Assembly (NCBI GenBank): GCA_965213625.1
Contig: CBDBZU010000004.1
Span: 3,072,001-3,136,000 of the forward strand
Length of the DNA stretch: 64,000 nt
Source of the DNA: a bacterium
Lineage (GTDB): Bacteria > UBA8248
Reading direction: 5' to 3'
The notes under the pieces were generated by a model. It was given only the letters and a program-made list of their open reading frames with translations, was not told the DNA's origin and did no database searches. Both the position numbers and the translations under genes were made by a program. This document shows, one piece after another, positions 203 to 56,682 of this stretch (its first letter is position 1; each line of letters starts with the position of its first letter).

Positions 203-514
203 ATGGCGGATGAGAGAGTATTCCTGATCGCGTGGCTCAAACCAAAACCCGGAAAAGAAGACGAGATGGCGGAACTTTTAGGCGGCATGTGCGCACCCTC
301 GCGCAATGAGGGCGGCTGCATCTTCTATAACCTCTTCAGGTCGACGGACGAGGCGGGCGCGTTCCATTTCATCGAGTGCTGGAAATCGCAGGCCGATCTC
401 GACGCGCACCGGGAAGAGCCGCACTACAAGAATTTCAGGGAGAAACTGCCCGACCTGCTCGCAGAGCCCGTGGGCGTGAAATTCCTGGAAGCCGTCGATT
501 CGACGATGGGGTGA
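203..514 (+). CDS. Antibiotic biosynthesis monooxygenase / putative quinol monooxygenase (ABM, YgiN-like)
   Basis: SRNEGGCIFYNL...FIECWKSQADLDAHREEPHY pattern; AGGAGG RBS upstream. Confidence 0.85.
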   Translation: MADERVFLIAWLKPKPGKEDEMAELLGGMCAPSRNEGGCIFYNLFRSTDEAGAFHFIECWKSQADLDAHREEPHYKNFREKLPDLLAEPVGVKFLEAVDSTMG

Positions 515-536
515 TATTGGGTTGAAGGGTCGTAGC

Positions 537-783
537 GTAGGGACAGGTCGCGGGGGCCTGTCCGCTACAAATGAAATGACAATCAAGACGGCTTGCCATC
601 ATTCCGGCGTAAATTGAATGAAAACGAACTTCATGAACACTCCCCTTTGATCGGGTTGTCAATACATGTGTAGGGGTCGCATATTATGCGACCCGCATTG
701 TGAAAACGAAAAGGCAGGGCCTCATGTATGTCGGACATATATGTCCGATCTACAACAGAAGCAGCAATGACGCCGGAATGACG
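537..783. repeat. REP cluster: GTAG-type palindrome (537-568), REPIN-like doublet (670-753), CATTCCGGC/GCCGGAATGAC remnants
   Basis: gtagggacaggtcgcg...cctgtccgctac; gtaggggtcgcatattatgcgaccc...tcggacatatatgtccgatctac closely matches 48130-48212. Confidence 0.85.
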
Positions 784-822
784 ATCAAAGGCGTACGCAG
801 GCGAGCACAGGGAATCGCCCGC

Positions 823-1533
823 CTACCCCGGCACCTCCATGCGCCGGTAGGATTCGGCGCACTCGAGGCCGCCCTCTTCGCCCGAGCGTTTCGCCCAGTT
901 TCTGAGATGGGGAACCAGCTCTTCAAAATCCTTGACCTGGCTCTTGTGGCACTTGAGCGCCTTGATTTTGAGGTCGAACGTATCGGTGATGTCCACCCAG
1001 GTGTCGGCGCCGCGAATCGTCTTGAAATAGACTTCCCTGGGATTGTGCGGCTCCAGACCCTCGGCCAACAGTTCGGGAAAGAAATTCGCATTCCCCACGG
1101 CGGGATAGAGCGCGTCGAAAACCGCCTTGGCGACGGCGCGGTGATCGCGGTGGTAGCCGTAGAAGCTGTCGAAAGCGTCGTTCGCCGGATCGTCGGCGAT
1201 GACGAGGTCCGGCTTGCACTCCCTCATCACATGCACGAGGTCGCGCCTGAGTTCGGTGGTGTTGCGCACTTCCCCGTCCGTATGGCGCAGGAAATGAACA
1301 TGCTCCACGCCGACGACGGCCGCCGCCGCGCGCTGTTCGCTCTCGCGAATCGCTCGTTTCTCCTCGATGGTCATGCGGCGCGATTCGGGGCCGTTCACGC
1401 CCTTGTCCCCGCTCGTGGCGAGGCAATACTCCACGCGCCTGCCCTCGCGCACCCATTTGGCGGCCGAGCCCGCCGAGCGGAACTCGATGTCGTCGGGGTG
1501 CGCGCAGATGATGAGAATTTTCTGATGTTCCAT
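823..1533 (-). CDS. PIG-L family deacetylase (MshB/BshB/LmbE-like)
   Basis: AHPDD and HRDH metal motifs, TSGDKG, KIKALKCHKSQ; start at MEHQK after AAGGA. Confidence 0.9.
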   Translation of the reverse strand: MEHQKILIICAHPDDIEFRSAGSAAKWVREGRRVEYCLATSGDKGVNGPESRRMTIEEKRAIRESEQRAAAAVVGVEHVHFLRHTDGEVRNTTELRRDLVHVMRECKPDLVIADDPANDAFDSFYGYHRDHRAVAKAVFDALYPAVGNANFFPELLAEGLEPHNPREVYFKTIRGADTWVDITDTFDLKIKALKCHKSQVKDFEELVPHLRNWAKRSGEEGGLECAESYRRMEVPG

Positions 1534-1633
1534 CGGGGTTTCCTTATGTGGGCCAAGCGGCAAGGCGACTTATAGCAGGGGGCGATGCGCATCGCAAAGG
1601 GGAAGGGGCACCCCCCCCTACCCCCCTTGTGTC

Positions 1634-1869
1634 GGGGTTGTTGAAAAAGTCTTTGTGTGAGATTTTTCGTTTGTTGTAGCGGACAGGCCCCTGCGCCTGT
1701 CTGGGGCCTCCGTGCCTGTCCTGAATGTAACCATCCTGCAAAAGGACAACCACGGAGGGCCGGACGACTCCGATAAGGGTTGTCCGGCTACACCCCCTCG
1801 CGTCGAACCCTCTCTCCCCGGTCGGCTCCATACGCCGAATCTCGAATTTGAGGCATTTTCAACAGCCCC
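1634..1869. mobile_element. Non-autonomous MITE with IS1182-like ends, enclosing a GTAG REP doublet
   Basis: Ends GGGGTTGTTGAAAA (1634) and TTTTCAACAGCCCC (1856-1869), 13/14 inverted match, resembling the IS ends at 49748/51267; interrupts a CCCCCTTG..AAGGG palindrome. Confidence 0.65.
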
Positions 1870-1920
1870 CTTGTCAAAAGGGTAATAGCGATGTCCCCCG
1901 ACAAGAGAGTGGAAGAAAAG

Positions 1921-2232
1921 CCCCCCTTGACAAGGGGGAGTACGGGGTCAAACGCGAGCGAAGAGCGAGTGTTTGCAGCCTTTCCAGTCGAGAGGGGCGT
2001 CCTCTCTACTCTCTAAAAAGGGGACTTTTTCAACAACTCCCGTAAGGACAGGTCACGACCTGTCCCTACACCTTCTGAGATAATCATTCCTCCACGAATC
2101 GAATATCCGGTGTAGGTGACAGCTCCTCCTTGGGGCTGCTCCACGCATAAATGCGACCCTTGTTTTCTATCCAACGTAGCCTCGATAGATTATGATTTGA
2201 GTCCGAACGGGCCGCATGTATGCGGCCCCTAC
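1921..2232. repeat. REP cluster
   Basis: ccccccttgacaagggggag (1921), TTTTTCAACAACTCC end (~2027), gtaaggacaggtcacgacctgtccctac (2042-2069), gggccgcatgtatgcggcccctac (to 2232). Confidence 0.8.
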
Positions 2233-2413
2233 ATTAATTTTCGACAAACAACTCAGAAGACAGATAGCTACTGCCGCCCCCCACTCCTCGGTCGGCGAAT
2301 GCTCGTTCCTCACTCGCGTTCGACCCCATGGTCGCCACCCCGAAAATCTGCTAAAAATAATGAAAAACACCTGCGCGAGATTTATTGCGAACCTGAATGA
2401 GGAGGAGACCGAG

Positions 2414-3004
2414 ATGTCGAGAATCACGCCGATGCCAGATGACGCCAAAGGCGATCACGAACCGCTCTTCGAGCAATCGAGGGAAAGATGGGGCACTGTT
2501 CCCAGTTTCTACCGCGCCCTGGCGCATTCGCCCGAAGCGCTGCGCCACATCATGAACCTGACGGTGGCCCTGAGGAGCCAGTGGCGGGCCGAGCCTTCGA
2601 GAATGCGCCTGATGCAGTTGGCGATCCTGACGCCCTCGCTCATCAACGACTGCGAGATATGAACGAACCACAACATAAAGCTTGGTCAAGCTGCCGGTCT
2701 GAATGATGAACATGTATCTTTGATAGTCGATGGATGGGAGGACAGCGACCTGTTCGATGAGCGGGAAAAGGCGGTGATCCGCTGGGCGACGGCTCTCACG
2801 CGGAACACGGCCGCCGCAGACGACGCCTGTTTCGCGCCGCTCAGGGAGTTTTTCAGCGAGAAGGACATCGTGGAACTTACCTTGTTCACCTGCCTGTTCA
2901 ACGCCTGGAACCGCCTGCAGGACGGCCTCCACAACCCCGTTGAGCCGCCCGACGACATCATCGGCTGGAAGGAATGGGAGGAAGTGGCGCAGGTGTCGGA
3001 TTAG
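2414..3004 (+). CDS. AhpD/carboxymuconolactone-decarboxylase-family protein with in-frame TGA at the second Cys of CxxC (C80-E-I-U83-T-N-H86); candidate selenoprotein, 196 aa
   Basis: ORFs 2216-2662 and 2720-3004 share one frame, with only TGA 2660-2662 between them. GGAGGA RBS before ATG 2414. Readthrough gives an intact AhpD-like protein (ALAHSPEAL...INDCEIUTNH...FDEREKAVIRWA...IVELT...FNAWNRL). Confidence 0.8.
2679..2692 (+). promoter_or_regulatory. Putative bacterial SECIS apical hairpin
   Basis: AGCTT-GGTC-AAGCT stem-loop; the loop starts with G, 21 nt after the in-frame TGA. Confidence 0.5.
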
Positions 3005-3019
3005 GTGGGGGGTGAGGCC

Positions 3020-3266
3020 GTAGGGGCGACCTTGCGTGGTCGCCCTTTATCGGATAGGCACAGGGGCCTGTCCCTACGGGTCAACCCAACTAAAGAGGGA
3101 AGAGTTTCAATGGATTTGTAGGGGCCGCATATTTGCGGCCCGCGCTGACAAGAGAGATCTATACGAGCCGAAAATCGCCTAGTCTCCACGAATTTTTGCG
3201 AAAACGGCAAGAATCAACCCACGGGTCGCATATATGTAGCGCTCCCAAGGAGGGAGCGCTACCTAC
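3020..3266. repeat. REP cluster (two GTAG doublets)
   Basis: gtaggggcgacc...ggtcgccc / ggggcctgtccctac; gtaggggccgcatatttgcggccc...ctacctac. Confidence 0.8.
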
Positions 3267-3328
3267 AAAACAACCACGACTGATGAGAGAGGCAAACGCC
3301 CTCCTCCCTATTTCAACGAGAGATAAAC

Positions 3329-4123
3329 ATGGATTTAGGCATCAAGGGAAAATCGACACTAGTGACGGGCGGCAGCCGGGGCATCGGCCGCGAGACGGCG
3401 AGGCGCTTTCTCGAAGAGGGCGCCCGCGTGTTCACCTGCGCGAGAAACGAGGTGGCCCTTGCCGAGACCTGCGCCGGGCTCGCCGCAGAAACCGGAGGTG
3501 AAATCCACTACGCCGTGGCGGATACCTCGAACGAAGCCGAACTCGCGCCCCTGGTCGAGCGCGCGCAGGAAAAACTCGGTTCCATCGACATTCTGGTGAA
3601 CAACGCGGGAACCATGAGTTCTGGCAGGTTCGAGGCGCTCGATGACGCCGCTCTTCAGAATCAACTCGACACCAAGCTGTTCGGTTTCCTGAGGCTCATC
3701 CGACTGGTGGAGCCGGGGATGCGCGCGAAGGGGTGGGGCCGCATCGTGAACATGATCGGCGGCGCCGGGAAGGAACCCGACCCCTACATGTTCGGCAGCG
3801 GCATGACGAACAGCGCGCTCCTGAACATGACGAAATCGCTATCCACCGAATTCGGCGAGGCGGGCATTCACGTGAACGCGGTATGCCCCGGCTGGGTGGA
3901 TACCGCTCTCTGGAGAATGAACGCCCAGGGCCTTGCGGCGGAACTCGAAGCCGATTCCGAAGATGAGGCCCGCCGCCGCGCGGCGCGCAAGAACGCGCTG
4001 GGCCGGTTCGGCAAGCCCGAAGAATTGGCCGACGCCATCGTCTTTCTCTGCTCGGAACGTGCGAGCTACATTACCGGCATCTCTCTCAATCTCGACGGCG
4101 GCAGGCTGAAGGCGTTGTGGTAG
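3329..4123 (+). CDS. Short-chain dehydrogenase/reductase (SDR)
   Basis: TGGSRGIG, ILVNNAG, VNAVCPGWV, DGG; catalytic YxxxK replaced by SGMTN (atypical subgroup). Confidence 0.9.
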   Translation: MDLGIKGKSTLVTGGSRGIGRETARRFLEEGARVFTCARNEVALAETCAGLAAETGGEIHYAVADTSNEAELAPLVERAQEKLGSIDILVNNAGTMSSGRFEALDDAALQNQLDTKLFGFLRLIRLVEPGMRAKGWGRIVNMIGGAGKEPDPYMFGSGMTNSALLNMTKSLSTEFGEAGIHVNAVCPGWVDTALWRMNAQGLAAELEADSEDEARRRAARKNALGRFGKPEELADAIVFLCSERASYITGISLNLDGGRLKALW

Positions 4124-4169
4124 AGGATAACCTCGCCTGATTTCTGCTGCGAATGTTTTATGGTCTGTT

Positions 4170-4507
4170 GTAAGGACAGGTCGCGACCTGTGGGACAGCC
4201 CCGAGAGGGGCTATCACTACCGAAACCGCTCGGTTTCAATGCCGGGCTTTCCCCTCGGAATGCCCGACCTTCAAGGGGTTGTTGAAAAAGTCCTCTTCGG
4301 CCTGAATTGACCACAGCCGTCATTCCGGCGAAAGCCGGAATCCATTGTCGAGCAGAATGACACTACTCCGTCTTTCCATCTCCCCGTCATTGGCGGGAAC
4401 CAATCAAAAAATAATAAACAAAGGCAAAACAAATGGATTCCGGCTTTCGCCGGAATGACGAACAAAACCGTACCGCATCGTAAGGACAGGTCGCGACCTG
4501 TCCCTAC
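4170..4507. repeat. REP cluster incl. inverted pair GTCATTCCGGCGAAAGCCGGAATCCA (4319-4344 / 4434-4459) and an IS-end-like GGGGTTGTTGAAAAAG
   Basis: Perfect 26-bp inverted pair; gtaaggacaggtcgcgacctgt copies at 4170 and 4480. Confidence 0.85.
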
Positions 4508-4634
4508 CGAACGACACCCGCATTCCTGTCGACAAACTACAATCGCTCCTCGCTCGGTTTTGGTCTTGCACAAAATACCCAAATGATTACACTAGAGCTT
4601 CCAAAAAACTTCTTTCGTTCGCGTGGGGAAATCA

Positions 4635-6503
4635 ATGCTCGGATATCAAGGAAAAATACTTCACATCGACCTCAGCAACCGCACGTCCCGCACCGAGGAA
4701 TTCGGTGAAGAGATGGGCCGCAAATACCTGGGCGGAAACGGCTTCGGAGCCAAGATTCTCTGGGACCACCTGAAGCCCCGAACCGACGCGCTATCTCCTG
4801 AAAACATCATCGTCTTCGCCGTGGGGCCGTATACGGATTCCGCCGTGCCGAGCGCGAGCCGCGCGTGCGCCGCCTCCATCAGCCCGCTCACCGGGCTCTT
4901 CTTCGACTCCACCTTCGGCGGTGCGTGGCCCATCACCTTGAAGCGCACCGGGTGCGACGCTGTCGTCCTGCACGGAAAGGCCGATTCCCTGGTCTACCTC
5001 ATGCTCACGGAAGACGGCGTTGCGTTCAAAGACGCGAGCCACCTCAAGGGTAAATGGATTCGGGAGACGTGCGACACCATTACCGATACCGAGGGCGGCA
5101 CGGACGTATTGGCCATCGGCCCCGCCGGGGAGAACCAGGTGCGCTTCGCGGCCATGGCGCACACCTGGCGCAAGAGCCGAGACGGCATCAGCGGACGCGG
5201 GGGCATGGCGGCGGTTCTGGGAAGCAAGAACGTCAAGGCCATCGCCGTGCGCGGCAAGGCGAAAACCGCCTGGGCGGACGCCAAGGCGCTCAGGACCTAC
5301 GTGAACGAGACGGCGGAGGACGTGCGCACGGGCACGGCGGCGCTCCACAAATACGGAACGCCGATTCTCGTCAACATGATCAACAAGATGGGCGCGCTCG
5401 GCACGCGGAACCTCATGAGCGAAATCTTTGAGAACTGCGAACCCATCAGCGGCGAGTACATGCACGACAATTTCCTGGACAAGCACACCACCTGCCTCAA
5501 ATGCCCGGTGGCGTGCGGCAAGAATTTCAAGATGAAAGGCGGCGATTTCGACGGCCTGGTGTGGAAGCTCCCCGAGTACGAGACCATTTTCGCGCTGGGA
5601 ACCATGCTGGGCATCGGCGACCCGGGCGTCATGCTCCAGGCGAACATGCTCTGCGATGAACTGGGGCTCGACACGATATCCGCAGGCGTCACGCTCTCGC
5701 TGGCCTTCGAGAGCATGGAGAAAGGACTATTGAGCGAGGCGGAAGTCGGCGAGCCCCTCAACTGGGGCGATTCCGCCACCATGCTGAGGCTCCTGGAGGA
5801 CATGACCCACCGCAAGGGCTTCGGCGACAGGCTGGCCGAGGGCGGCAAGCGCCTGGCCGCGGATATCGGCGGCGACGCGCCCAATCTTCTGTATGCTTCG
5901 CGCGGACTTGAACTCCCGGCGCACAGCGCGCGCGCGCTCAAGGGCATGTCCATCGGCTACGCCACCGGCACGCGAGGCGGCAGCCACCACGACACCCGCC
6001 CCACCCTGCAGTACGCCTCTGACCACGACAATACCTCGACCGAGGGCAAGTCCGAGTTCGCCGTGCGCACGCAGAACTTCACGGCGCTTGGTGATTCCAT
6101 CACCCAGTGCCGCTTCACGGCGGAGCGCGGCTACGGGGCGATGATCAATGAAAAATATGCGGAAATGCTCAACCTGGTGACCGGCTGGGATACGACGGCG
6201 GATGAGCTGGAGGAAACCGGCGAGCGCATCTGCAACCTGGAGCGCGCCCTCCACGTGCGCGAAGGGGTGAGCCGCGCGGACGACATGCTGCCGTACAAGG
6301 TGATGCACGAGCCGATTCCCGACGGGCCGCACAAGGGGATGCACTGCCCGCCTGATGAGCTCGAAGGCATGAAAAACGAGTTTTATGGCATCCGCGGCTG
6401 GGATGAGAACGGGTTCCCCACGCAGGCGACGCTTCAAAGGCTCAAAATGGATGACGTGGCCGATGCGCTGGCAAACAACGGCGGGGGCAACGGCGCGGGT
6501 TGA
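4635..6503 (+). CDS. aor: Aldehyde:ferredoxin oxidoreductase family protein (W/Mo-pterin)
   Basis: YLGGNG, ISPLTG, IGPAGEN, GRGGMAAVLGSKNVKAI, CLKCPVAC, EYET, CDELGLDTIS. Confidence 0.92.
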   Translation: MLGYQGKILHIDLSNRTSRTEEFGEEMGRKYLGGNGFGAKILWDHLKPRTDALSPENIIVFAVGPYTDSAVPSASRACAASISPLTGLFFDSTFGGAWPITLKRTGCDAVVLHGKADSLVYLMLTEDGVAFKDASHLKGKWIRETCDTITDTEGGTDVLAIGPAGENQVRFAAMAHTWRKSRDGISGRGGMAAVLGSKNVKAIAVRGKAKTAWADAKALRTYVNETAEDVRTGTAALHKYGTPILVNMINKMGALGTRNLMSEIFENCEPISGEYMHDNFLDKHTTCLKCPVACGKNFKMKGGDFDGLVWKLPEYETIFALGTMLGIGDPGVMLQANMLCDELGLDTISAGVTLSLAFESMEKGLLSEAEVGEPLNWGDSATMLRLLEDMTHRKGFGDRLAEGGKRLAADIGGDAPNLLYASRGLELPAHSARALKGMSIGYATGTRGGSHHDTRPTLQYASDHDNTSTEGKSEFAVRTQNFTALGDSITQCRFTAERGYGAMINEKYAEMLNLVTGWDTTADELEETGERICNLERALHVREGVSRADDMLPYKVMHEPIPDGPHKGMHCPPDELEGMKNEFYGIRGWDENGFPTQATLQRLKMDDVADALANNGGGNGAG

Positions 6504-9614: not shown

Positions 9615-11726
9615 TTGAACTCATCTTTCAATCAGCGCGCAAATTCCGCTTTAGTCAATATCCCTTTGCAGGATGCTCTTCAAGCGGCTACAGGCAAATT
9701 CGCCAACCAGCGCGCACATGCCTTCGAGTCGACTGCGGCACCGCTCGCCTTAAGGGCGAAAGCAAGGGAAATCCGCAGGAAAACGTTCGATGAGATCGAC
9801 AAACATCTGGCAACTTTGTTCGAGAATCTCAAAAATCTCGGTGTACATATTCACACTGCACCCAATGCGGATTCCGCAAAGCGAATCGTCCTCGATATTG
9901 CCCGCAAACATGGGGTAAAGACGGTAGTCAAGAGTAAATCCATGGCTTCTGAGGAGATCCACCTGAATCAGGCGTTGGAGGCGGCTGGCATCACCCCGTA
10001 CGAAACCGACCTGGGCGAATGGATTCTTCAACTGGCCAACGAAACGCCTAGCCACCTGGTGGCGCCGGCCATCCATAAAACATTAAAGCAAGTACAAGAC
10101 CTTTTTCGCGAAAAGGTAGACCCGAATGCCGGTTCGGACCCTCAGGAGCTCACGGCTATCGCTCGTGAGAAACTCAGAACGGAATTTCTGCGGGCGGGCA
10201 TGGGAATCAGTGGCGTGAATTTCGCCGTAGCGGAAACCGGAACGCTATGTCTCGTCACAAACGAGGGGAACGGACGACTCGTCACCACTTTACCCAAAGT
10301 CCACGTGGCGATTATGGGGTTCGAAAAAGTAGTGCCCACGTTACGAGATACGCTTACACTCCTGTCAGTGCTCCCGCGCAGCGCAACAGGTCAAAAACTT
10401 ACCAGTTATTTCACCATGCTCACTGGACCAAGAAAAGAAATCGAAGCTGACGGCCCTGATGAAGTTCACCTCGTGCTCCTTGATGGAGGCCGCTCCAGGC
10501 ATCTCGGAACGCCGTTTCAGGAAGCATTTCATTGTATCCGGTGCGGGGCTTGTCAAAACGCCTGCCCTGTCTTCCAGACGGTAGGCGGTCATACATACGA
10601 CTCTGTATATGGTGGACCAATCGGTTCGATCTTGAGTCCAATGCTCCGCGGCCTCGAAGTTTCCGGTGAGCTTCCCGCGGCATCGAGTCTATGCGGCGCC
10701 TGCATGGACGCCTGTCCCGTATTTGTCGACATTCCTCGAATGCTACTGGAAATGAGAGAGGCGAGAACGGCCAAGAAAAATAACGCATTATTCGAGAGGT
10801 TTTCGTTCCGCTTGCTTGGGATGGCGATGCGCAAACCTTTTATTTGGGAGATGGGTTTCAAGACTGCCTCCATTTTTTCAAGATTTATGAATGCCAAAAC
10901 GGCCGCTTGGATGCCAGGACCTCTCGGCGCATGGGCGAAGGGGCGGGAACTTCCCAAAATTACGAAAAAGAGTTTTCGAGCGCGCTGGCGGGAGCAAAAA
11001 CGAGGGGTCAGCGAATCGTATTCAGCAATCCCTGACATTTCGCCAACGGACAGCCCGGAAGCGATTATCGAAAAAACCCACCATGCCCTGGACTTGGCCC
11101 ACGGATTATCACACGGCAACTTCGAAGCCACTGAGGGCCCATTACCGGAAATCACCGTCCCGGACAGCGCCGCTCGCTTTGCCATAGAGTTCGAAGCGGT
11201 GGCGAATCCCACTTATCGTCCGAAATCCGTAGATGACATCCGAGAATATATCGTTAATCTAGCGGGTAAATGGAAAGAATACCCCGTCGCCATCAGCGAA
11301 GGCCTGCCAATTGATGTCGTCAATTGGCTTGTAGAAGATGGCTATGATGTGATTTCTCCATCGAATGATGGAGATAACCGAGATGCAATCGCCCGTAGCG
11401 GTATCGGGATCACGGGCTGCGATTGGGCAATTGCGGAAACGGGCAGCATCGTCTTGCGAAGTGGACCAGGCCATCCGCGTCTGCATTCCCTACTCCCGGA
11501 AATTCACCTGGCCCTCATTCCCGAAAAGAACATTTTGCCGCATATTTCCTCGCTGGGCCCTGAACTCGAAAGGACCCTTAAACAAGAAGAAGGCGTCTCG
11601 CCCAGTTGCGTGAACATCATCACGGGGCCTAGCCGCTCGGCCGATATCGCACTGACACTCATCAAAGGTGTCCATGGCCCTCGCGATGTATTTGCAATTA
11701 TCATTCCTGACACGCTCATCACATGA
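9615..11726 (+). CDS. lutB: Fused lactate utilization proteins B and C (LutB/LldF + LutC/LldG)
   Basis: KSKSM, ETDLGE, NEGN, CIRCGACQNACP, SSLCGAC..CP; C-terminal AETGS...SLLPE...ITGPSRSADI...GVHGP of LutC. Confidence 0.88.
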   Translation: MNSSFNQRANSALVNIPLQDALQAATGKFANQRAHAFESTAAPLALRAKAREIRRKTFDEIDKHLATLFENLKNLGVHIHTAPNADSAKRIVLDIARKHGVKTVVKSKSMASEEIHLNQALEAAGITPYETDLGEWILQLANETPSHLVAPAIHKTLKQVQDLFREKVDPNAGSDPQELTAIAREKLRTEFLRAGMGISGVNFAVAETGTLCLVTNEGNGRLVTTLPKVHVAIMGFEKVVPTLRDTLTLLSVLPRSATGQKLTSYFTMLTGPRKEIEADGPDEVHLVLLDGGRSRHLGTPFQEAFHCIRCGACQNACPVFQTVGGHTYDSVYGGPIGSILSPMLRGLEVSGELPAASSLCGACMDACPVFVDIPRMLLEMREARTAKKNNALFERFSFRLLGMAMRKPFIWEMGFKTASIFSRFMNAKTAAWMPGPLGAWAKGRELPKITKKSFRARWREQKRGVSESYSAIPDISPTDSPEAIIEKTHHALDLAHGLSHGNFEATEGPLPEITVPDSAARFAIEFEAVANPTYRPKSVDDIREYIVNLAGKWKEYPVAISEGLPIDVVNWLVEDGYDVISPSNDGDNRDAIARSGIGITGCDWAIAETGSIVLRSGPGHPRLHSLLPEIHLALIPEKNILPHISSLGPELERTLKQEEGVSPSCVNIITGPSRSADIALTLIKGVHGPRDVFAIIIPDTLIT

Positions 11727-21496: not shown

Positions 21497-21823
21497 TTAA
21501 ATAGCGCGATCGATGGCAGCCTTCAAATCGGCTTTTGATTTAACTCCCACGACCTGTTCTACAACCTCACCTCCCTTGAATAACATCAATGTCGGGATAC
21601 CGCGTATTCCAAATTTCGTGGGAACCGATGGATTCTCATCTATATTCAACTTTCCGATGCGCACTTTTCCTTCGTATTCCTGAGCAAGAGCTTCAACAGT
21701 TGGCGCTATCATTTTACAAGGAGCACACCACTCCGCCCAAAAATCAACTAATGTAGGAGTATCTGAGCCGATCACATCCGTATCGAAATTTTGGTCCGTA
21801 AACTCGAAAACACCTTCCGCCAT
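21497..21823 (-). CDS. trxA: Thioredoxin
   Basis: VDFWAEWCAPCK, GIRGIPTL. Confidence 0.95.
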   Translation of the reverse strand: MAEGVFEFTDQNFDTDVIGSDTPTLVDFWAEWCAPCKMIAPTVEALAQEYEGKVRIGKLNIDENPSVPTKFGIRGIPTLMLFKGGEVVEQVVGVKSKADLKAAIDRAI

Positions 21824-33958: not shown

Positions 33959-34034
33959 TTTCAAACTTATGAGTTTCACATCCAGCACACGGGAATTCGT
34001 AGTTTTCTCTAATTCTTTATACAGGGAGAGGACA

Positions 34035-34691
34035 ATGGCTTTAAGAATCAATGATGAAGCTCCGGATTTTTCTGCAGACACAACCCAAGGCCCCATCAAT
34101 TTTCATGAATGGATTGGCGAGGGTTGGGCCATCATGTTTTCACATCCAAAGGACTTTACACCAGTCTGCACCACAGAGCTCGGGACCATGGCTGGACTTA
34201 AATCCGAATTCGAAAAAAGAAACTGCCAAGTGATCGGCATCAGCGTCGATGGGGTTTCAGATCATGAAAAATGGTCCAAAGACATTGAAAGTTCTCAGGG
34301 CCATGCCGTGAATTATCCCTTGATTGGCGACCCAGGACTTGAAATAGTCAAAGCCTATGACATGCTACCGGCTGATTCGGGCGACTCATCCGAAGGCCGG
34401 ACAGCCGCTGATAATGCGACAGCCCGATCAGTGTTCGTTGTCGGCCCGGACAAGAAAATCAAAGCAACTCTCACATACCCAATGAGCACCGGTCGGAATT
34501 TTAGCGAAATACTAAGACTTTTGGACTCCTGCCAGCTGACGGCCAGCGAGCAAGTGGCAACCCCGGCGAACTGGCAACAGGGCGAAGACGTCATCATTTT
34601 GCCCGCCGTTTCCGATGAGGATGCGAAGAAGAAATATCCGGAAGGTTGGGAGTCGCCCCTGCCTTATATTCGAGTCGTCAAGCAACCATAG
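34035..34691 (+). CDS. 1-Cys peroxiredoxin (Prx6)
   Basis: FSHPKDFTPVCTTE, YPMSTGRNF, ATPANW. Confidence 0.93.
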   Translation: MALRINDEAPDFSADTTQGPINFHEWIGEGWAIMFSHPKDFTPVCTTELGTMAGLKSEFEKRNCQVIGISVDGVSDHEKWSKDIESSQGHAVNYPLIGDPGLEIVKAYDMLPADSGDSSEGRTAADNATARSVFVVGPDKKIKATLTYPMSTGRNFSEILRLLDSCQLTASEQVATPANWQQGEDVIILPAVSDEDAKKKYPEGWESPLPYIRVVKQP

Positions 34692-39614: not shown

Positions 39615-39830
39615 CGGTGTTAATCCTCCTATCGGTTTCAGGTGTACACGATCAGCGGAATACATCTGCTACATAAGAATTTGACAGGTTGCAAGGCGTT
39701 GCTTTGTTTGATAAGCAATTATTAAGGCTGCGGCCGGCGCGGCCAACTTGAATTTCTGGAAATGTACTTGGAGTGAGAGCCCCCACCTGTTTCATCTCTA
39801 CCCATTTCCAAACATGCAGGAGATCAGCAA

Positions 39831-40046
39831 GTGCCAGAAGGAACAGTGAAGTGGTTCAATGACGCGAAGGGCTATGGATTCATTTCGCAGACGGATGGTG
39901 ACGACGTTTTCGTTCACTTCTCCGCCATCCAGGGAGAGGGATTCAAAACCCTGGAGGAAGGACAAAACGTGAACTTCGAAATTGTCCAAGGCCCGAAAGG
40001 GCTTCAGGCGGCAAACGTCACAAAAGGGGGTGACTCCGAAGAATAA
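39831..40046 (+). CDS. cspA: Cold-shock protein
   Basis: [34 protein letters not shown]. Confidence 0.95.
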
Positions 40047-40066
40047 CCCTCATTCAGATAGAACCC

Positions 40067-40099
40067 AAAACGGCGGCTCTCACGGGCCGTCGTTTTTTT
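40067..40099 (+). terminator. Intrinsic terminator after csp
   Basis: aaaacggcggctc-tcac-gggccgtcgttttttt. Confidence 0.75.
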
Positions 40100-43525: not shown

Positions 43526-43845
43526 CCTCACCCTGAGTAGCTGCCAAAGGCGGCGTATCGAAGGGCGCTCCCGATGCGCCCCTGCTCTCCCTCGATACGG
43601 AGCGTAAGCGCGCCTACTCGGGATGAGGGAAGGGTGTCGCCGCGGGTCAAACGTGAGTGAGAAGCGGGAATTGTCTATTGACTAAGGAGGAGGTGAGCTT
43701 CCGTAGGGACAGGTCGCGACCTGTCCGCCGCTTTTACTCGTCACTCCAGCATTCGCCGGAATGACGGCATTTTCGTGATTTTCGCCCGGTGAGGAGGGGT
43801 TTGTGGTTTTGTAGCCGGACAGGCGCAGGAGCCTATCCGGGGACC
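43526..43845. repeat. REP cluster (CTCACCCTGAGTAG..GTATCGAAGGG doublet, GTAG REP, GCCGGAATGAC REP)
   Basis: Same units recur at 51416-51535, 48063 and 4434. Confidence 0.8.
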
Positions 43846-47641: not shown

Positions 47642-48213
47642 GTAGGGACAGGCCTCCGTGCCTGTCCTCGCGCGTCGGTCAACGAAGCCCCCACGAGTAC
47701 CTTTGCCAATCGACACGAATGTAGATTCACTCCCCCCTTGAGGGGGAGTCGACGAGATAAGGGCGAAGCCCGCAAGCGAGTCGGTGGGGGGAGCTTTAAT
47801 TTTAGAATCGTCCCCCCACCGATTCAGCCTTCGCATAAATCGCTCGGCTTCTTCGACTCCCCCTCAAGGGGGGAGTGGTTTTCTTCTCTCGTCTGCTCTG
47901 GATTCCGGCATTCGCCGGAATGACGGGCACCTGGCATTCGGAACCCGTAGAGACAGGCCCCTGTGCCTGTCCAGATCGTGGCCGCCCTGAAAAAGGACAA
48001 CCACGAGGGGCAGGACAACCCCGAGGAGGGGTTGCCCCTATCACCTCACAGATTCCGATCCCGTAGGGACAGGTCGCGACCTGTCCCTACTCAGAAAACC
48101 AAACATCTCTTCACCGGGTTGAATCGATTGTAGGGGTCGCATATATGCGACCCGTCGTCGGTAGGCGAAAAGGCAGGGTCGCGTATACGTCGGACATATA
48201 TGTCCGACCTACA
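47642..48213. repeat. Large REP cluster between convergent genes
   Basis: ACTCCCCCCTTGAGGGGGAGT doublet 47729-47876, TGGATTCCGGCATTCGCCGGAATGAC 47900, perfect 28-bp palindrome 48063-48090, doublet 48130-48212. Confidence 0.9.
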
Positions 48214-48231
48214 CACGGGAACGACACCCCC

Positions 48232-49323
48232 TCACACCGCATCCGGCAACAACGGCAGCAGGTACTTCCCGAAATTACGCGCCTCATCATCATGCGGCCA
48301 GCCGGAGAGGATGAACGTGGTGGCTCCTAAGTCGATGTATTCGCGCATGGCTTCCGCCACCACCTCGGGGCTGCCCACGAGCATGGTGCCCGCCCCCTGG
48401 CGTACGAGGTTGATGCCCGAGAACAGCGCAGGGCCATGCCAGAGCTTGCCCTCCGCCGTCATGGCATTCATGCGCTGCTGGGAAACGGATTCCACTTGGC
48501 CCCCCACCTCGCCTGTGACCGATGAACTCTCTCCGTAGGACGCCGTGCCCGCGATGATGGACTCGGCCTCTTCCTTGGCCTGCGCGTCGTCCTCGCGCAC
48601 GAGGATGTGGAAGCGCACGCCTAATCTTAAATCCCGGCCGTGCTCCTCGCGCGCCATTTTTTTGACTTCCTCGTATTCCTCGGCGATCTGCCAGGGAGGT
48701 TCCCCCCATTTCAGGAAAACGTCGGCGTGCTTAGCGATGACCTTTTTCGCCGCGGGCGAGCTTCCCCCGAAATAAAGGGGCGGCCCTCCCGGTCGCGCGG
48801 GGCCGGGGAAGACGAAGCCGTCCTCCACCTGATAGTGCACGCCCTTGTAGTTGACCCTGGCGTCCTCATCCGCCCAGAACGCGCGCACGATGTCCAGAAA
48901 CTCATCGGCCCGCTCGTAGCGTCCGTCGTGACCCGCCCAGTCCCCGTAGCGCCTTGCGTCCACGGATGATCCGCCGGGAACCACGTTCACCGTCAGCCTC
49001 CCGCCCGAGATGAAGTCGAGCGTATTAGCCTGCTGCACGGCGAAAGTCGGCGTGGTGAGGCCGGGCCGGATGGCGACACAGAATTTGATGCTGCTGGTTT
49101 CACGGGCGATCGCGGAGGCCAGGAGCCAGCCGTCCGAGCACGAGGTGTTGCACGGGATGAGCATGTTCGTGAGACCGCTCTCCTCCGCCGTCTTCGCGAC
49201 GTGAACGAGATAGTCGATCTCGGGCGGTATCTCCACCTCCCCCGTGCCGAGACGGGTGGCGTCCCCCCGTTTGTTCGAGGGCAGATACCAGGCGTATTCG
49301 ATGGGTTTCTTGCCGTTTTCCAT
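48232..49323 (-). CDS. LLM-class flavin monooxygenase (SsuD/MsuD-like)
   Basis: WYLP, VAIRPG, SGGRLTVNVV.G, RYERADEF, LYFGGSS, WGEP, LVGSPE, FILSGWPH. Confidence 0.88.
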   Translation of the reverse strand: MENGKKPIEYAWYLPSNKRGDATRLGTGEVEIPPEIDYLVHVAKTAEESGLTNMLIPCNTSCSDGWLLASAIARETSSIKFCVAIRPGLTTPTFAVQQANTLDFISGGRLTVNVVPGGSSVDARRYGDWAGHDGRYERADEFLDIVRAFWADEDARVNYKGVHYQVEDGFVFPGPARPGGPPLYFGGSSPAAKKVIAKHADVFLKWGEPPWQIAEEYEEVKKMAREEHGRDLRLGVRFHILVREDDAQAKEEAESIIAGTASYGESSSVTGEVGGQVESVSQQRMNAMTAEGKLWHGPALFSGINLVRQGAGTMLVGSPEVVAEAMREYIDLGATTFILSGWPHDDEARNFGKYLLPLLPDAV

Positions 49324-49746: not shown

Positions 49747-51268
49747 TGGGTCTGTTGAAAAAGCCCCGGCATTGTGATTGGGTGTAAGGACACTATCTCG
49801 CCCGAGATGGGAGTTCCCTCGATGATAGGCAGCAAGGGGCGCGAGCAGATGGATTTGTTCGTGGCCGGTTCGCTGGAACGGTTGATCCCCGAGGATCACG
49901 TCCTGATGCGCGTGGACCGCGTACTGGATTTGAGTTGGCTTCGCGCGGAGGTGGCGGATTGCTATTGCGCGGATAACGGTCGACCGGGGATCGACCCGGA
50001 GGTGGCGTTGCGCCTGATGCTGGCGGGTATGTTGCTGGGCTACGTACACGACCGTCGCCTGCTTCGCGAGGCGCGTGCGCACCTGGCGATCCGGTGGTTC
50101 ATCGGGTACGGGCTGCACGAGGAGTTGCCGCATCATTCGAGCCTGACGCGGATACGTCAGCGCTGGGGGGAGGCACGGTTCAAGGAGATATTCCGTCGCA
50201 CGGTGCAGGCTTGCCTGGAGGCGAATGTGGCGAAGGGGGAAGTGGTGCACGTGGACGCCTCGTTGATACGCGCGGACGTGAGCTGGGAGAGCCTGGCGGC
50301 GCACCACGCGGAGAAGGTGATTCAGGAGAATCCCGTCGATGATGAGGTCGGGAAGAAGGGAGGAGGCCGCGGTGGCGGGGGTCCGGTGAGCCGGACGGAC
50401 CCGGACGCGCGGCTTGCGCGCAAGAGCGCGCGGGCGGGGTTCGAGCCGAGCTACAAGCAGCACGCGGCGGTGGACGATGAGCGGGGTGTTGTTCTCGACG
50501 TGTCGGTGACGGAGGGGACGCGGAACGAGCGTGAGATGATGGCGTCCCATATAGAGGCGGTAAGCGAGTTGTCGGGCCGCACGCCGGAGATGGTGACGGC
50601 GGATTCGGGGTACGCGTACTCGAAGGTTTACGGCGAATTGGAGCGGCGGGGCGTGGAAGCGCTGATACCAGCGAAGAAGGAACCCAGCCAGAGCCGTGTT
50701 CCGCTGCAGTTGTTCCACTACGACGCGCGCAACGAGGTGGTGAAGTGTCCGGGAGGCAAGACGCTGCGCCCCCGGCAGGCGACGGAGCGGGGGCGCTCCT
50801 ATGTATCGAAGACGCGGGATTGCGCGGGCTGCGCGCTCAGGCCCGATTGTCTGTCGAAGTCGCGCACGAGCAGGACGGTGTTGATTCCCAACGCGTATCC
50901 GGCGCTGTTGCGCGCGCGTCGGCGGCATGCGCGCTGGGGGGAGGAGGAGAAGCGTCTCTATGGCCGCCACCGTTGGCGCTCGGAGGGCTACCACGGCGAA
51001 GCGAAGAGTTGGCACGGACTGGGGCGGGCGGTGCGCCGGGGCCTTGCGAACATGAGGATCCAGTCCTACCTGACGGCGATAGCGGTGAACCTCAAGCGGC
51101 TGGCCGCCGCTTTTGCGGCGCGTTTATTCGCCCTCTGGAGGGTCTGTGCCGCCTGGAGACGCCGTCTGCGCACACATGGCGCCCTCACGCGCCGATTGGG
51201 CTGCCTCTCCGCCGCCGCGTGAGCCGCCAAAACGCCCGCTTCCAACACCGGGTTTTTCAACAGACCCC
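49747..51268 (+). mobile_element. IS1182-family insertion sequence
   Basis: Perfect 15-bp TIR GGGTCTGTTGAAAAA (49748) / TTTTTCAACAGACCC (51253-51267); (C)TCA target duplication. Confidence 0.9.
49822..51222 (+). CDS. IS1182-family DDE transposase
   Basis: IPEDH.L, NGRPGIDP, PHHSSLTR.R.R, VDASLI, SRTDPDA, ADSGY, CAGCALR..C, R...SEG..GEAK. Confidence 0.92.
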   Translation: MIGSKGREQMDLFVAGSLERLIPEDHVLMRVDRVLDLSWLRAEVADCYCADNGRPGIDPEVALRLMLAGMLLGYVHDRRLLREARAHLAIRWFIGYGLHEELPHHSSLTRIRQRWGEARFKEIFRRTVQACLEANVAKGEVVHVDASLIRADVSWESLAAHHAEKVIQENPVDDEVGKKGGGRGGGGPVSRTDPDARLARKSARAGFEPSYKQHAAVDDERGVVLDVSVTEGTRNEREMMASHIEAVSELSGRTPEMVTADSGYAYSKVYGELERRGVEALIPAKKEPSQSRVPLQLFHYDARNEVVKCPGGKTLRPRQATERGRSYVSKTRDCAGCALRPDCLSKSRTSRTVLIPNAYPALLRARRRHARWGEEEKRLYGRHRWRSEGYHGEAKSWHGLGRAVRRGLANMRIQSYLTAIAVNLKRLAAAFAARLFALWRVCAAWRRRLRTHGALTRRLGCLSAAA

Positions 51269-54268: not shown

Positions 54269-55312
54269 CTACAAGTATCCCATTTCCGCACAGTAAGCCA
54301 CGAATACGGAGCCCGCGTAGCCGGCATAAGTATCCTGGTCGAACAACATGTGTTGAAAGTTCCTGTCGTTGATTAGATTCATCATCCAGTTGCAGTAAGT
54401 ATGATCGTAAAACTTGAATCCGGTCTCGCACATGAACAGATGACCAGAATTGTTGTCCACCAAAACGTCGTGCGCGTAGAATCCCGGGCCCAGGGCGCAT
54501 CCGATGCGTTTCCCCAGCGCGTGAAGTTCTTCCAGACGCGGCGCAACCAGTTTTCCATACAGATGCTCCAGAAGTTCGGGATTTTTCGGAGTATCCCTGC
54601 TGTGCACCGACGGGTTGTTCTCATCGACGTTTCGGGCGCGAATATATATCTGCAACGTGCGTGTGCCGATACAAACCAGCCTGACGCACGTAAAATAGTC
54701 GCCGTTTTCAAACGGTATCCTGGTGTCGATAAACTCCGCATTGTAGCGGTTGTCATCTATTTCCTCTGCATTTTCGAGGACAAAGACATCCTCTCCGGAA
54801 CCGACTCTTGCGTTGCTGAATATCTTCTTCCCCTCATCTATGTCCAGGCTCGGCATCCTTATCCCTTGCCGGGACAATGTTTCGTTCGCCTTTTGCTTGT
54901 CTTTAATAATATTGGCGGTACGATGAGAATTGAAAATCGCGTTTGCTTTCTTCGATAAATCTTCTGGAATATCGAATTTATCGAGATCGTCATAAATTTC
55001 ATTCACGAGATGAATCAGGACAACCGGTACGCCTTCGGAATTATCGAGTTCTCTCTTCAAACCCTTGCAGTCGGTTACGCACGACGTCGCAATGCCGCAT
55101 TGTCCCAATATTCGGCAAAACGGCGGAAAAAAAAGATTTGCCTGCACCTTTCCGCGGGTATTCAACCCATCAGCGCCCAAAGCGCAAAAAATTACTTTTC
55201 CTCTGGCTTTCGATGGTTGAAACCGTCGAATCGGCAAATTTCTCTCCCAATGCCTGTTTCTGTATTTTTGGGGGAAAGCGCGAAAAAAGGTGCGCTCTAA
55301 TCTCATCATCAT
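54269..55312 (-). CDS. Hypothetical protein, possibly ATP-grasp-like
   Basis: IKDKQKAN..L...GI.MP, EFID, R..CIG, FYAHDV, CETG spacing; start uncertain. Confidence 0.5.
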   Translation of the reverse strand: MMMRLERTFFRAFPQKYRNRHWERNLPIRRFQPSKARGKVIFCALGADGLNTRGKVQANLFFPPFCRILGQCGIATSCVTDCKGLKRELDNSEGVPVVLIHLVNEIYDDLDKFDIPEDLSKKANAIFNSHRTANIIKDKQKANETLSRQGIRMPSLDIDEGKKIFSNARVGSGEDVFVLENAEEIDDNRYNAEFIDTRIPFENGDYFTCVRLVCIGTRTLQIYIRARNVDENNPSVHSRDTPKNPELLEHLYGKLVAPRLEELHALGKRIGCALGPGFYAHDVLVDNNSGHLFMCETGFKFYDHTYCNWMMNLINDRNFQHMLFDQDTYAGYAGSVFVAYCAEMGYL

Positions 55313-55402: not shown

Positions 55403-56440
55403 TCAAGACGATTCGATCGCAGACTCGACTTTTTTCGCAACATCGGCCGGCACCCACTTCTTCCAGACCTTATTGGTCTTCAGGAAGTGGATTGCGGTGA
55501 CCTTCGCGTCGCCGCCGGCATCTTTCTCGAGATAGGAGAGCACCTCCGAGACGACTTTGGAGGGAAGCGAGTATTTCTCGAGGAAAGCGACGATCTCCGG
55601 ATGCTTGGCCGCGAACTTCGTGGTGACCGTTTTGGGTAGCTCCATCGTCCGGTAGGCGACGGCCTTCCTGGGGTTCCCCATGGCCTCCTCCCCGCCCTTC
55701 TTGAGCGCGCTCACGTGCTTCATCATCGCGTCCCAGTCGGCCTCGTTCCATGCAGGTTCTTCGAGCTGGACGAGGTCGAGCTGCCCCAGGAGCGGCGTCG
55801 GCGCCCAGTAATAGGCCACGACCGGCTTTTTCTTGAGATAGGCCCCCTTGATGGCCGCCGCGAGCGCGCCGCCCGAACCGGGCCGGAAGTTGGTGAAATG
55901 TTTCTCCAGCCCGTAGGCGCGCAGCTTCACCGTGTTGATGACCTCACACGCCCAGCCGGGGATGCAGTTCACGAACCGGCCTTTGGAGGGTTCTTCGGGG
56001 TCCTTGAAGAGATGCTTGTACTTCGCGAGGTCGTAGACCGTCTTGAGGCCCGGGTTCGCCGTCTGGACGAAGCGCGGGATGAACCAGCCCTGTATGCTGT
56101 CGGGCGTGTTCACGCTCAGCTTCTTGACCTTGCCCTTCTTCTCCGCGAGGTCGTACTGATCCTTCGTGCTGTCGTACCAAAGCTCCATGATCAGGTCGTT
56201 TTTCCCCTCGTAGTGGGCCGCCATGGTCGGCAGCGTGCCGCCGTAGATGAGCCGCACCCGGCAGCCGTAGCCGTGCTCGAGGATGAAGGCGGCCACCTGG
56301 CCGTGAAAATTGGCGCTGTCCCAGTTCAGGTCGCCGATCCGGACCCTGCAGGTGGCTTCCGCCCTTCCGGGCAGGGAGACGAGGGCGCTCAGGCCGAGGA
56401 AGAGTGCAAGAACGACGATAATCAATGTCTTGGGCTTCAT
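55403..56440 (-). CDS. Glycine betaine/proline ABC substrate-binding protein (ProX/OpuAC)
   Basis: Signal peptide, LNWDSA, MELW, GWFIP, CIPGWAC, PGSG, YYWAPT. Confidence 0.88.
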   Translation of the reverse strand: MKPKTLIIVVLALFLGLSALVSLPGRAEATCRVRIGDLNWDSANFHGQVAAFILEHGYGCRVRLIYGGTLPTMAAHYEGKNDLIMELWYDSTKDQYDLAEKKGKVKKLSVNTPDSIQGWFIPRFVQTANPGLKTVYDLAKYKHLFKDPEEPSKGRFVNCIPGWACEVINTVKLRAYGLEKHFTNFRPGSGGALAAAIKGAYLKKKPVVAYYWAPTPLLGQLDLVQLEEPAWNEADWDAMMKHVSALKKGGEEAMGNPRKAVAYRTMELPKTVTTKFAAKHPEIVAFLEKYSLPSKVVSEVLSYLEKDAGGDAKVTAIHFLKTNKVWKKWVPADVAKKVESAIESS

Positions 56441-56682
56441 GGATGATCTCCGATGTGAAGGCATTCCGGACGGGACGACTTCCGCGCGCGAGTGTTATCG
56501 AGGATGAAATTCTAGCAAGCGCAATACGCGGCATCAAATCCACGGTATGACGGGCAAACGCCACACTCACCCGCAGTCAATCACACCTACCCCTTCCCAA
56601 GCGGGAGCCCAACCTGTAGATTGAAGCTCGCCGTATTTACGACGCGCAATATCCCGAGAACGCCTTAAACCCCGAGAACCGG

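Follow-up and report, generated by a model that had tools for sequence, protein, structure and literature searches.

A probable AhpD-like selenoprotein gene with a conserved in-frame UGA and a compact, covarying SECIS hairpin

AhpD-like selenoproteins carrying a CxxU motif were described in 2005 as members of COG2128, on the basis of 27 Sargasso Sea sequences (PMC1088965). In the GOS data, the 'AhpD-like 1' group was listed with 299 Sec and 902 Cys sequences and counted among the most abundant selenoprotein families (PMC2398784). Such proteins are also reported from cultured genomes (PMC1794560), and a table in a 2026 review lists TIGR01926 with CxxU as Sec-containing (PMC13188914). The bacterial SECIS element that accompanies Sec codons is described as minimally a 5/6-bp hairpin (PMC4607533), with a conserved G in its apical loop (PMC1088965) and with that loop located 16-37 nt from the UGA (PMC10778597). 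An earlier, sequence-only reading of the locus presented here had called CxxU proteins of the AhpD type little characterised. This description holds for their biochemistry but not for their existence, which has been catalogued repeatedly (PMC1088965, PMC2398784, PMC13188914).

The gene considered here lies in a 64-kb stretch of bacterial DNA, which we analysed as a whole and refer to as the window. The sequence-only reading had described one frame from an ATG at 2414 to a TAG at 3004, broken by a single TGA and preceded by a strong ribosome binding site, and direct inspection agreed with it on both points. The only interruption of the frame is the TGA at 2660-2662, within TGC-GAG-ATA-TGA-ACG-AAC-CAC, and the read-through product would have 196 residues with the motif C80-E-I-U83-T-N-H86. 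The features of the gene are as follows.

2400-2407, plus strand: Shine-Dalgarno-like AGGAGGAG, with a 6-nt spacer to the ATG at 2414-2416 (sequence read directly)
2414-3004, plus strand: putative selenoprotein coding sequence, 196 aa, AhpD-like/peroxidase-related, with stop codon TAG at 3002-3004
2651-2653, plus strand: Cys80 codon TGC, first residue of CxxU (Cys in 28/28 orthologues and in 67/76 Cys-type homologues)
2660-2662, plus strand: UGA, assigned as Sec83 from TGA conservation and the aligned Cys in homologues
2669-2671, plus strand: His86 codon, a conserved His 3' of the redox motif (His in 28/28 orthologues and in 56/76 homologues)
2679-2692, plus strand: minimal SECIS hairpin from the comparative alignment, with stem 2679-2683/2688-2692 and apical loop GGUC at 2684-2687
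3024-3045, plus strand: G+C-rich 8-bp hairpin followed by TTTA, a possible terminator 20 nt past the stop (read directly)

The last of these was not called by the terminator scan, its T-run being too short. On the other side of the gene, approximately 90 nt 5' of the ATG at 2414 are conserved across the orthologous loci. As the sequence-only reading had noted, TGA serves as a normal stop elsewhere in the window: among 53 greedily chosen, non-overlapping ORFs of 90 aa or more, TGA was the stop in 25, TAG in 17 and TAA in 11, numbers that are approximate because a few antisense shadows are included. Since TGA ends 25 of these 53 long ORFs, a general reassignment of TGA is excluded and the code is standard. 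We consider it highly probable that 2414-3004 is one intact 196-residue AhpD-like selenoprotein gene in which the UGA at 2660-2662 is decoded as Sec by means of the hairpin. From the comparisons described below, it is almost certain that this TGA stands for selenocysteine in a small redox enzyme.

Homologous loci were collected by a pattern scan that covered one genome per species and used patterns taken from the C-terminal half of the protein, which made it blind to the TGA. Eighty loci were fetched. Twenty-seven of them (L001-L027) are orthologues with 59-96% amino acid identity, from MAGs that are labelled Nitrospinota/Nitrospinaceae or are unclassified. Orthologues of 94-95% identity come from the chromosome-level relatives OY843592.1, OZ253442.1 and OZ244713.1. 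The other 53 loci are 31-42% identical and include a second paralogue of the same genomes as well as loci from Tectomicrobia, Chloroflexi, Burkholderiales and other lineages. Codon 83 is TGA in all 27 orthologues and in 51 of the remaining 53 loci (78/80 in total); the two other loci, L042 and L055, carry TGC. Every orthologous ORF starts with ATG, keeps the frame and contains exactly one internal stop. Among 76 full-length homologues, 69 have Cys in the column aligned to U83, which corresponds to the second Cys of CxxC. The in-frame UGA is thus found at the catalytic Cys of homologues, where the sequence-only reading had placed it. That reading had also predicted that homologues would have either Cys or a conserved TGA where U83 aligns, had named the codon of close homologues as a point to be checked, and had expected purifying selection on both halves of the gene. 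All of this was borne out. Among the orthologues, codons 2-82 gave a median pairwise dN/dS of 0.113 (275 pairs) and codons 84-190 one of 0.087 (243 pairs), the mean dS of orthologue pairs being ∼0.9; of 378 possible pairs, those with a dS that was undefined or outside 0.05-2 were dropped. The UGA is therefore kept in orthologues under purifying selection on both sides.

These data bear directly on the possibility that a Cys codon (TGC or TGT) has been mutated or misread to TGA, so that the locus would be a pseudogene or the product of a sequencing or assembly error. A single-base change suffices for this, the distant homologues L042 and L055 do carry TGC at codon 83, and public gene calls take the TGA as a stop. 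However, the same TGA is present in 27/27 orthologues that were assembled independently and whose synonymous divergence is near saturation, dN/dS downstream of it is 0.087, and it is followed by a conserved, covarying hairpin. By sequence comparison, error or pseudogene is effectively refuted, and we assign it a probability close to nil. Some of the other homologues vary within the motif itself: Ser replaces the first Cys in L046 and L051 (S-D-Y-U) and in L042 (S-I-N-C), and the Burkholderiales-type loci L065, L072 and L074 have tandem copies, some with CTG (Leu) at the Sec/Cys position.

The sequence-only reading had anticipated that gene callers would split or truncate the gene, and public data matched this expectation. 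In a library of 1.84 billion proteins, the best matches were an 82-aa protein corresponding to residues 1-82 and a separate 100-aa C-terminal fragment. Fifteen sequences from NCBI, JGI, ENA and Logan make up the cluster of the 82-aa form; the gene is thus routinely truncated at 82 aa in public calls. Such calls could also be taken at face value, with an 82-aa peptide ending at the UGA and a C-terminal half produced from an internal start. Pipelines indeed call the 82-aa protein along with C-terminal fragments of ∼100-109 aa (P0002, P0009), and a TTG at 2720 opens a 94-aa ORF in the window. Yet the sequences downstream of the TGA have no start codon in common: P0002 begins at codon 88, which reads ATA here and GTC, GTA or AAG in most of the others, and codon 103 is TTG in only 9 of 28 sequences. 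Moreover, in the structural model (pLDDT 94) both halves belong to a single compact AhpD fold whose active-site helix runs across the junction, and the Cys homologues are single chains. We therefore regard two separate products as highly improbable; TGA conservation, dN/dS and the lack of a conserved downstream start exclude this two-gene model together with sequencing error and pseudogene.

Single-sequence folding of the 61 nt and of the 121 nt 3' of the UGA was uninformative, as it did not recover the hairpin and gave insignificant z-scores of 0.99 and 0.30, respectively. It was after this, and by comparison alone, that the SECIS element emerged, and the covarying hairpin is an addition to the sequence-only reading, which had none. 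The GGUC loop occupies +25 to +28 counted from the U of the UGA, i.e. 21 nt after the UGA. In the orthologue alignment, 5/5 stem pairs are formed in 28/28 sequences and the GGUC is invariant. Two of the stem pairs covary among these 28 sequences, from A-U to G-C in six and from U-A to C-G in four, a pattern that reflects few independent events inside a coding sequence, with a synonymous Leu change paired with a Gln to Arg change. The codon of Gly91 in the loop is GGT in 28/28, and Gly95 is encoded by all four Gly codons. The gene thus has a covarying stem-loop with a G-containing apical loop that lies within the published range of 16-37 nt from the UGA (PMC10778597). No conserved lower stem was found in the orthologue alignment.

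The same element can be followed beyond the orthologues. A GGUC loop is present in 75 of the 78 TGA-bearing loci, at +25 in 61 and at +21 in 14 of them; the variants are GGUU in two loci and CGUU in one. Distant TGA-bearing homologues share the hairpin architecture with different stem sequences. In a family-wide alignment of 79 sequences (45 distinct), which was anchored on the GGTC loop and hence leans towards structure, 88.3% of cells pair, versus at most 48.9% with slid partners. The covariation score was 0.551 against a shuffle mean of 0.250, none of 500 shuffles reached 0.551, and compensatory changes were found in 5 of 7 pairs. Since the sequences are related, these pairing and covariation values are to be read as supportive counts and not as probabilities. 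At the equivalent place of the Cys-codon homologues L042 and L055 there is no pairing. The window hairpin itself is among the weakest of the family, with 5 bp and -3.8 kcal/mol, where the family medians are 6 bp and -8.6 kcal/mol. With the minimal SECIS of the E. coli fdhF type it shares a short 5/6-bp hairpin soon after the UGA and a G in the apical loop (PMC4607533, PMC1088965). It differs from that type in being very small and A-U-rich, at -3.8 kcal/mol and with no conserved lower stem detected. The fdhF SECIS loop also reads GGUC.

From this conserved anatomy we infer the following insertion mechanism, together with actual selenium incorporation and the presence of selABCD in this genome. 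The mRNA hairpin within the coding sequence would recruit SelB.GTP.Sec-tRNA(Sec) as the ribosome reaches UGA83, and Sec would enter the chain where translation would otherwise terminate. In the product, C80-x-x-U83 would form a redox centre where a helix begins, with His86 following it. This centre would most likely cycle between selenol/thiol and selenenylsulfide states, thereby reducing a peroxide or a disulfide/sulfenic substrate, a chemistry that is suggested by analogy with the family.

The evidence presented above demonstrates recoding and not the identity of the inserted residue, which leaves room for a site-specific recoding of the UGA to something other than Sec. The residue could be Cys, inserted via a tRNA-Sec-like tRNA and SelB, or Trp or Cys from near-cognate decoding, and the hairpin would then be a recoding signal without selenium. 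Cys-charged tRNA-Sec-like tRNAs exist as an idea. SECIS-dependent systems are furthermore described as naturally variable in what they decode (PMC10778597). On the other hand, the hairpin has the hallmarks of a SECIS in its distance from the UGA, its small stem and its loop G (PMC1088965, PMC10778597, PMC4607533), a published table gives the family as Sec-containing (PMC13188914), and BSepDB lists 54 selenoprotein genes for FO_M_Nitrospinota_01, the related genome from which orthologue L018 derives, which puts it among the ten bacteria richest in such genes (PMC13326102). We consider insertion of a residue other than Sec to be very unlikely. Concerning the machinery for Sec insertion, no selA, selB, selD or tRNA-Sec was found within the 64-kb window, which is one stretch of the genome only, so that their absence from it does not count against the machinery. 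ARAGORN detected no tRNA-Sec in the flanks of 51 of the 80 loci, nor in the window, and an Rfam scan of the window at gathering thresholds returned one tRNA and a cspA-type match and no SECIS or tRNA-Sec family. Indirect support for such machinery comes from the second paralogue of the same genomes, which likewise has a TGA and a SECIS, and from the 54 selenoprotein genes listed for the genome of L018. In sponge-symbiont bins of various phyla, moreover, the SelA and SelB COGs are reported to co-occur in most bins (PMC5649159).

The second AhpD-like selenoprotein paralogue in the same Nitrospinota genomes is ∼38% identical to the gene described here and has the motif C-N-N-U. It was found at loci L028-L041, L043-L045, L047, L049, L050, L052, L054, L056, L057, L064 and L077, with its match near 10001-10550 in most of them. 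Its SECIS is stronger, with a GAGCUC-type stem of 6-8 bp and a GGUC loop, and a tRNA-Ala(CGC) is often located ∼2 kb downstream. A hairpin scan of the 64-kb window gave no second copy of this paralogue.

For family assignment, the searches were run with the protein in which C was substituted for U. The best NCBIfam match was TIGR01926 ('peroxidase-related enzyme') at 71.2 bits (E = 8.7e-20, profile positions 8-176 of 178). The curated cut-off of this model is 81.8 bits, and as the score is below it, we place the gene beside this subfamily, as a close relative or a sister clade, without counting it as a certified member. With Pfam PF02627 (CMD) the score was 16.7 bits versus a gathering threshold of 23, so that the AhpD/CMD assignment rests on the NCBIfam, PDB and fold matches. 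Two AhpD-superfamily (seleno)protein models gave detectable matches, NF053654 (YciW-related (seleno)protein) with 51.7 bits versus a cut-off of 310 and NF041238 (AhpD_rel_CFYUT) with 21.2 bits versus 175, and the gene falls outside both equivalogs. By phmmer, 11 PDB sequences of solved AhpD/CMD-fold proteins were matched, including Atu0492, PA0269, D. radiodurans AhpD, 'peroxidase-related' proteins and the debrominase Bmp8.

An AlphaFold2 model built from a 77-sequence alignment was all-helical, with a pLDDT of 94 and a pTM of 0.89, and its predicted helix of residues 81-93 begins right after C80. The model thus shows the all-helical AhpD fold, in which the redox motif sits at the N-terminal end of a helix, and C80-E-I-U83-T-N-H86 provides a CxxC(U) followed by the conserved His. 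In a Foldseek search against the PDB, 30 matches had E <= 0.001, and among the matches listed all were AhpD/CMD-type chains. According to this confident model, the read-through protein is of the AhpD/CMD fold. The residue preceding the Sec is distinctive: 70 of the 76 Cys homologues have Tyr at position 82, where the clade of the gene has Ile, with Val in 1 of 28 orthologues.

Compared with the AhpD-like selenoproteins of COG2128/TIGR01926, the gene has in common the fold family, a Sec at the second Cys position of CxxU, a SECIS with a loop G just 3' of the UGA, and widespread Cys homologues. It differs from them in its TIGR01926 score below the cut-off, in the Ile (not Tyr) before the Sec, and in a clade that, among the loci fetched, is limited to Nitrospinota-labelled MAGs. 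By these sequence comparisons it is a well-supported member of the AhpD-like selenoprotein family or a sister clade of it, the latter option being kept because of the sub-threshold TIGR01926 score and the Ile before the Sec. The Cys-type structures used for comparison were 6k40 (D. radiodurans AhpD), 2gmy (Atu0492), 2o4d/2ijc (PA0269) and 7xw1 (P. aeruginosa AhpD). The model shares the fold of these proteins, with a TM-score of 0.77 to 6k40 and of 0.84-0.86 (target-normalised) to 2gmy. The latter also matched in sequence (E = 5.5e-18), its CxxC being aligned to C80/U83. In contrast to the predicted protein, the Cys-type structures have Cys at both motif positions. The debrominase Bmp8 (6ohi/6ohj), a Cys-dependent enzyme of the CMD superfamily, shares the fold as well (TM 0.75) and matched at E = 1.9e-6, a comparison that draws on PDB titles for the nature of Bmp8. 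Identity to Bmp8 is only 17-19%, however, and bmp-type neighbours are absent here.

Mycobacterial AhpD is an AhpC reductase. The ahpC linkage of that type was not found at this locus, where the gene lies between those for a PIG-L deacetylase and an SDR. Because no ahpC-type gene adjoins and the nearest peroxiredoxin is ∼31 kb off, a role as AhpC reductase is not indicated. The neighbours and the other annotated features of the window are listed here.

823-1563, minus strand: PIG-L/LmbE-family deacetylase, divergent (PF02585, 2.8e-27; BshB1 model 96.8 bits versus a cut-off of 182.5)
3329-4123, plus strand: SDR-family oxidoreductase, downstream of the selenoprotein gene after a 325-nt gap
21497-21823, minus strand: thioredoxin, encoded in the window
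33969-34691, plus strand: 1-Cys-type peroxiredoxin, the sole peroxiredoxin of the window, ∼31 kb from the selenoprotein gene
39742-40098, plus strand: Rfam match to the cspA thermoregulator (83.4 bits versus a gathering threshold of 78)
49774-51222, plus strand: IS1182-family transposase (364 bits, above cut-off)

The PIG-L gene is the most conserved neighbour, being identically placed and oriented in 21 of the 27 orthologous loci; 2 of the 6 loci without it have too little flank to tell. The SDR gene is adjacent downstream in 17/27, with gaps of 56-936 nt. The peroxiredoxin and the thioredoxin are possible redox partners of the selenoprotein, and neither adjoins its gene. A 291-aa ORF at 700-1575 (plus strand), considered as a conserved neighbour of unknown function, was rejected as an antisense shadow of the PIG-L gene. 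In the window, the order at 203-6503 is ABM monooxygenase, PIG-L, selenoprotein, SDR and aldehyde:ferredoxin oxidoreductase (AOR), and it is the same in L026. In most other orthologous loci (L001, L005 and others), the ABM and AOR genes have changed sides relative to the PIG-L/selenoprotein/SDR block. To judge from gene order, the swapped sides suggest an inversion of this ∼3-kb block.

The intergenic region upstream of the gene (1564-2413) is unusually long, at 850 nt versus 111-477 nt in the orthologous loci. It holds short dispersed repeats that are shared with 47956-48090, 4479-4507, 43703-43726 and 542-570 and that also occur at intergenic sites in relatives. In addition, palindromes of the form GGCCGCAT..ATGCGGCC flank the gene at 2210-2227 and 3123-3140, with another at 48135-48152 (3 matches versus 0.47 expected). 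The repeats and palindromes look like REP/MITE-type elements. The cspA match in the list above probably corresponds to a gene for a small cold-shock protein together with its leader, the gene being below the 90-aa ORF cut-off.

The other TGA codons of the window were scanned for a hairpin with a GGU loop. Two further hits were rejected, the one at 48234 as the ordinary stop of an alkanesulfonate monooxygenase and the one at 3698 as lying in an antisense frame, and a survey of in-frame continuations past TGA stops in the window gave nothing convincing. A gene for a glycine-betaine-type substrate-binding protein (55403-56464, minus strand) ends in TGA and is followed by 31 stop-free codons in frame and then by a 347-aa ORF of no known family (54269-55312, minus strand). 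The hairpin scan found no SECIS-like element here, and the continuation is probably a coincidence.

AhpD-like CxxU selenoproteins are already known, and the gene is an ordinary family member that leaves our knowledge of Sec decoding unchanged. What it adds to the AhpD-like family is a compact and clearly covarying SECIS, in a phylum-level lineage reported as unusually selenoprotein-rich. Since the gene is systematically mis-called, the proteomes of these bacteria would lack a real redox enzyme. What AhpD-like selenoproteins reduce has been a question since 2005, and the conserved neighbour, the PIG-L deacetylase, offers a modest new lead to it. One idea along this line, which we put forward as a doubtful one, is that the C-E-I-U clade is not a peroxidase but a selenium-dependent partner in a pathway of low-molecular-weight thiols or other small molecules, or else a Bmp8-like reductive dehalogenase that uses Sec. 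Judged by gene neighbourhood, the partner pathway may be set by the divergent PIG-L/LmbE (BshB/MshB-like) gene, often along with the SDR. If true, this would give AhpD-like selenoproteins a concrete, non-peroxidase substrate.
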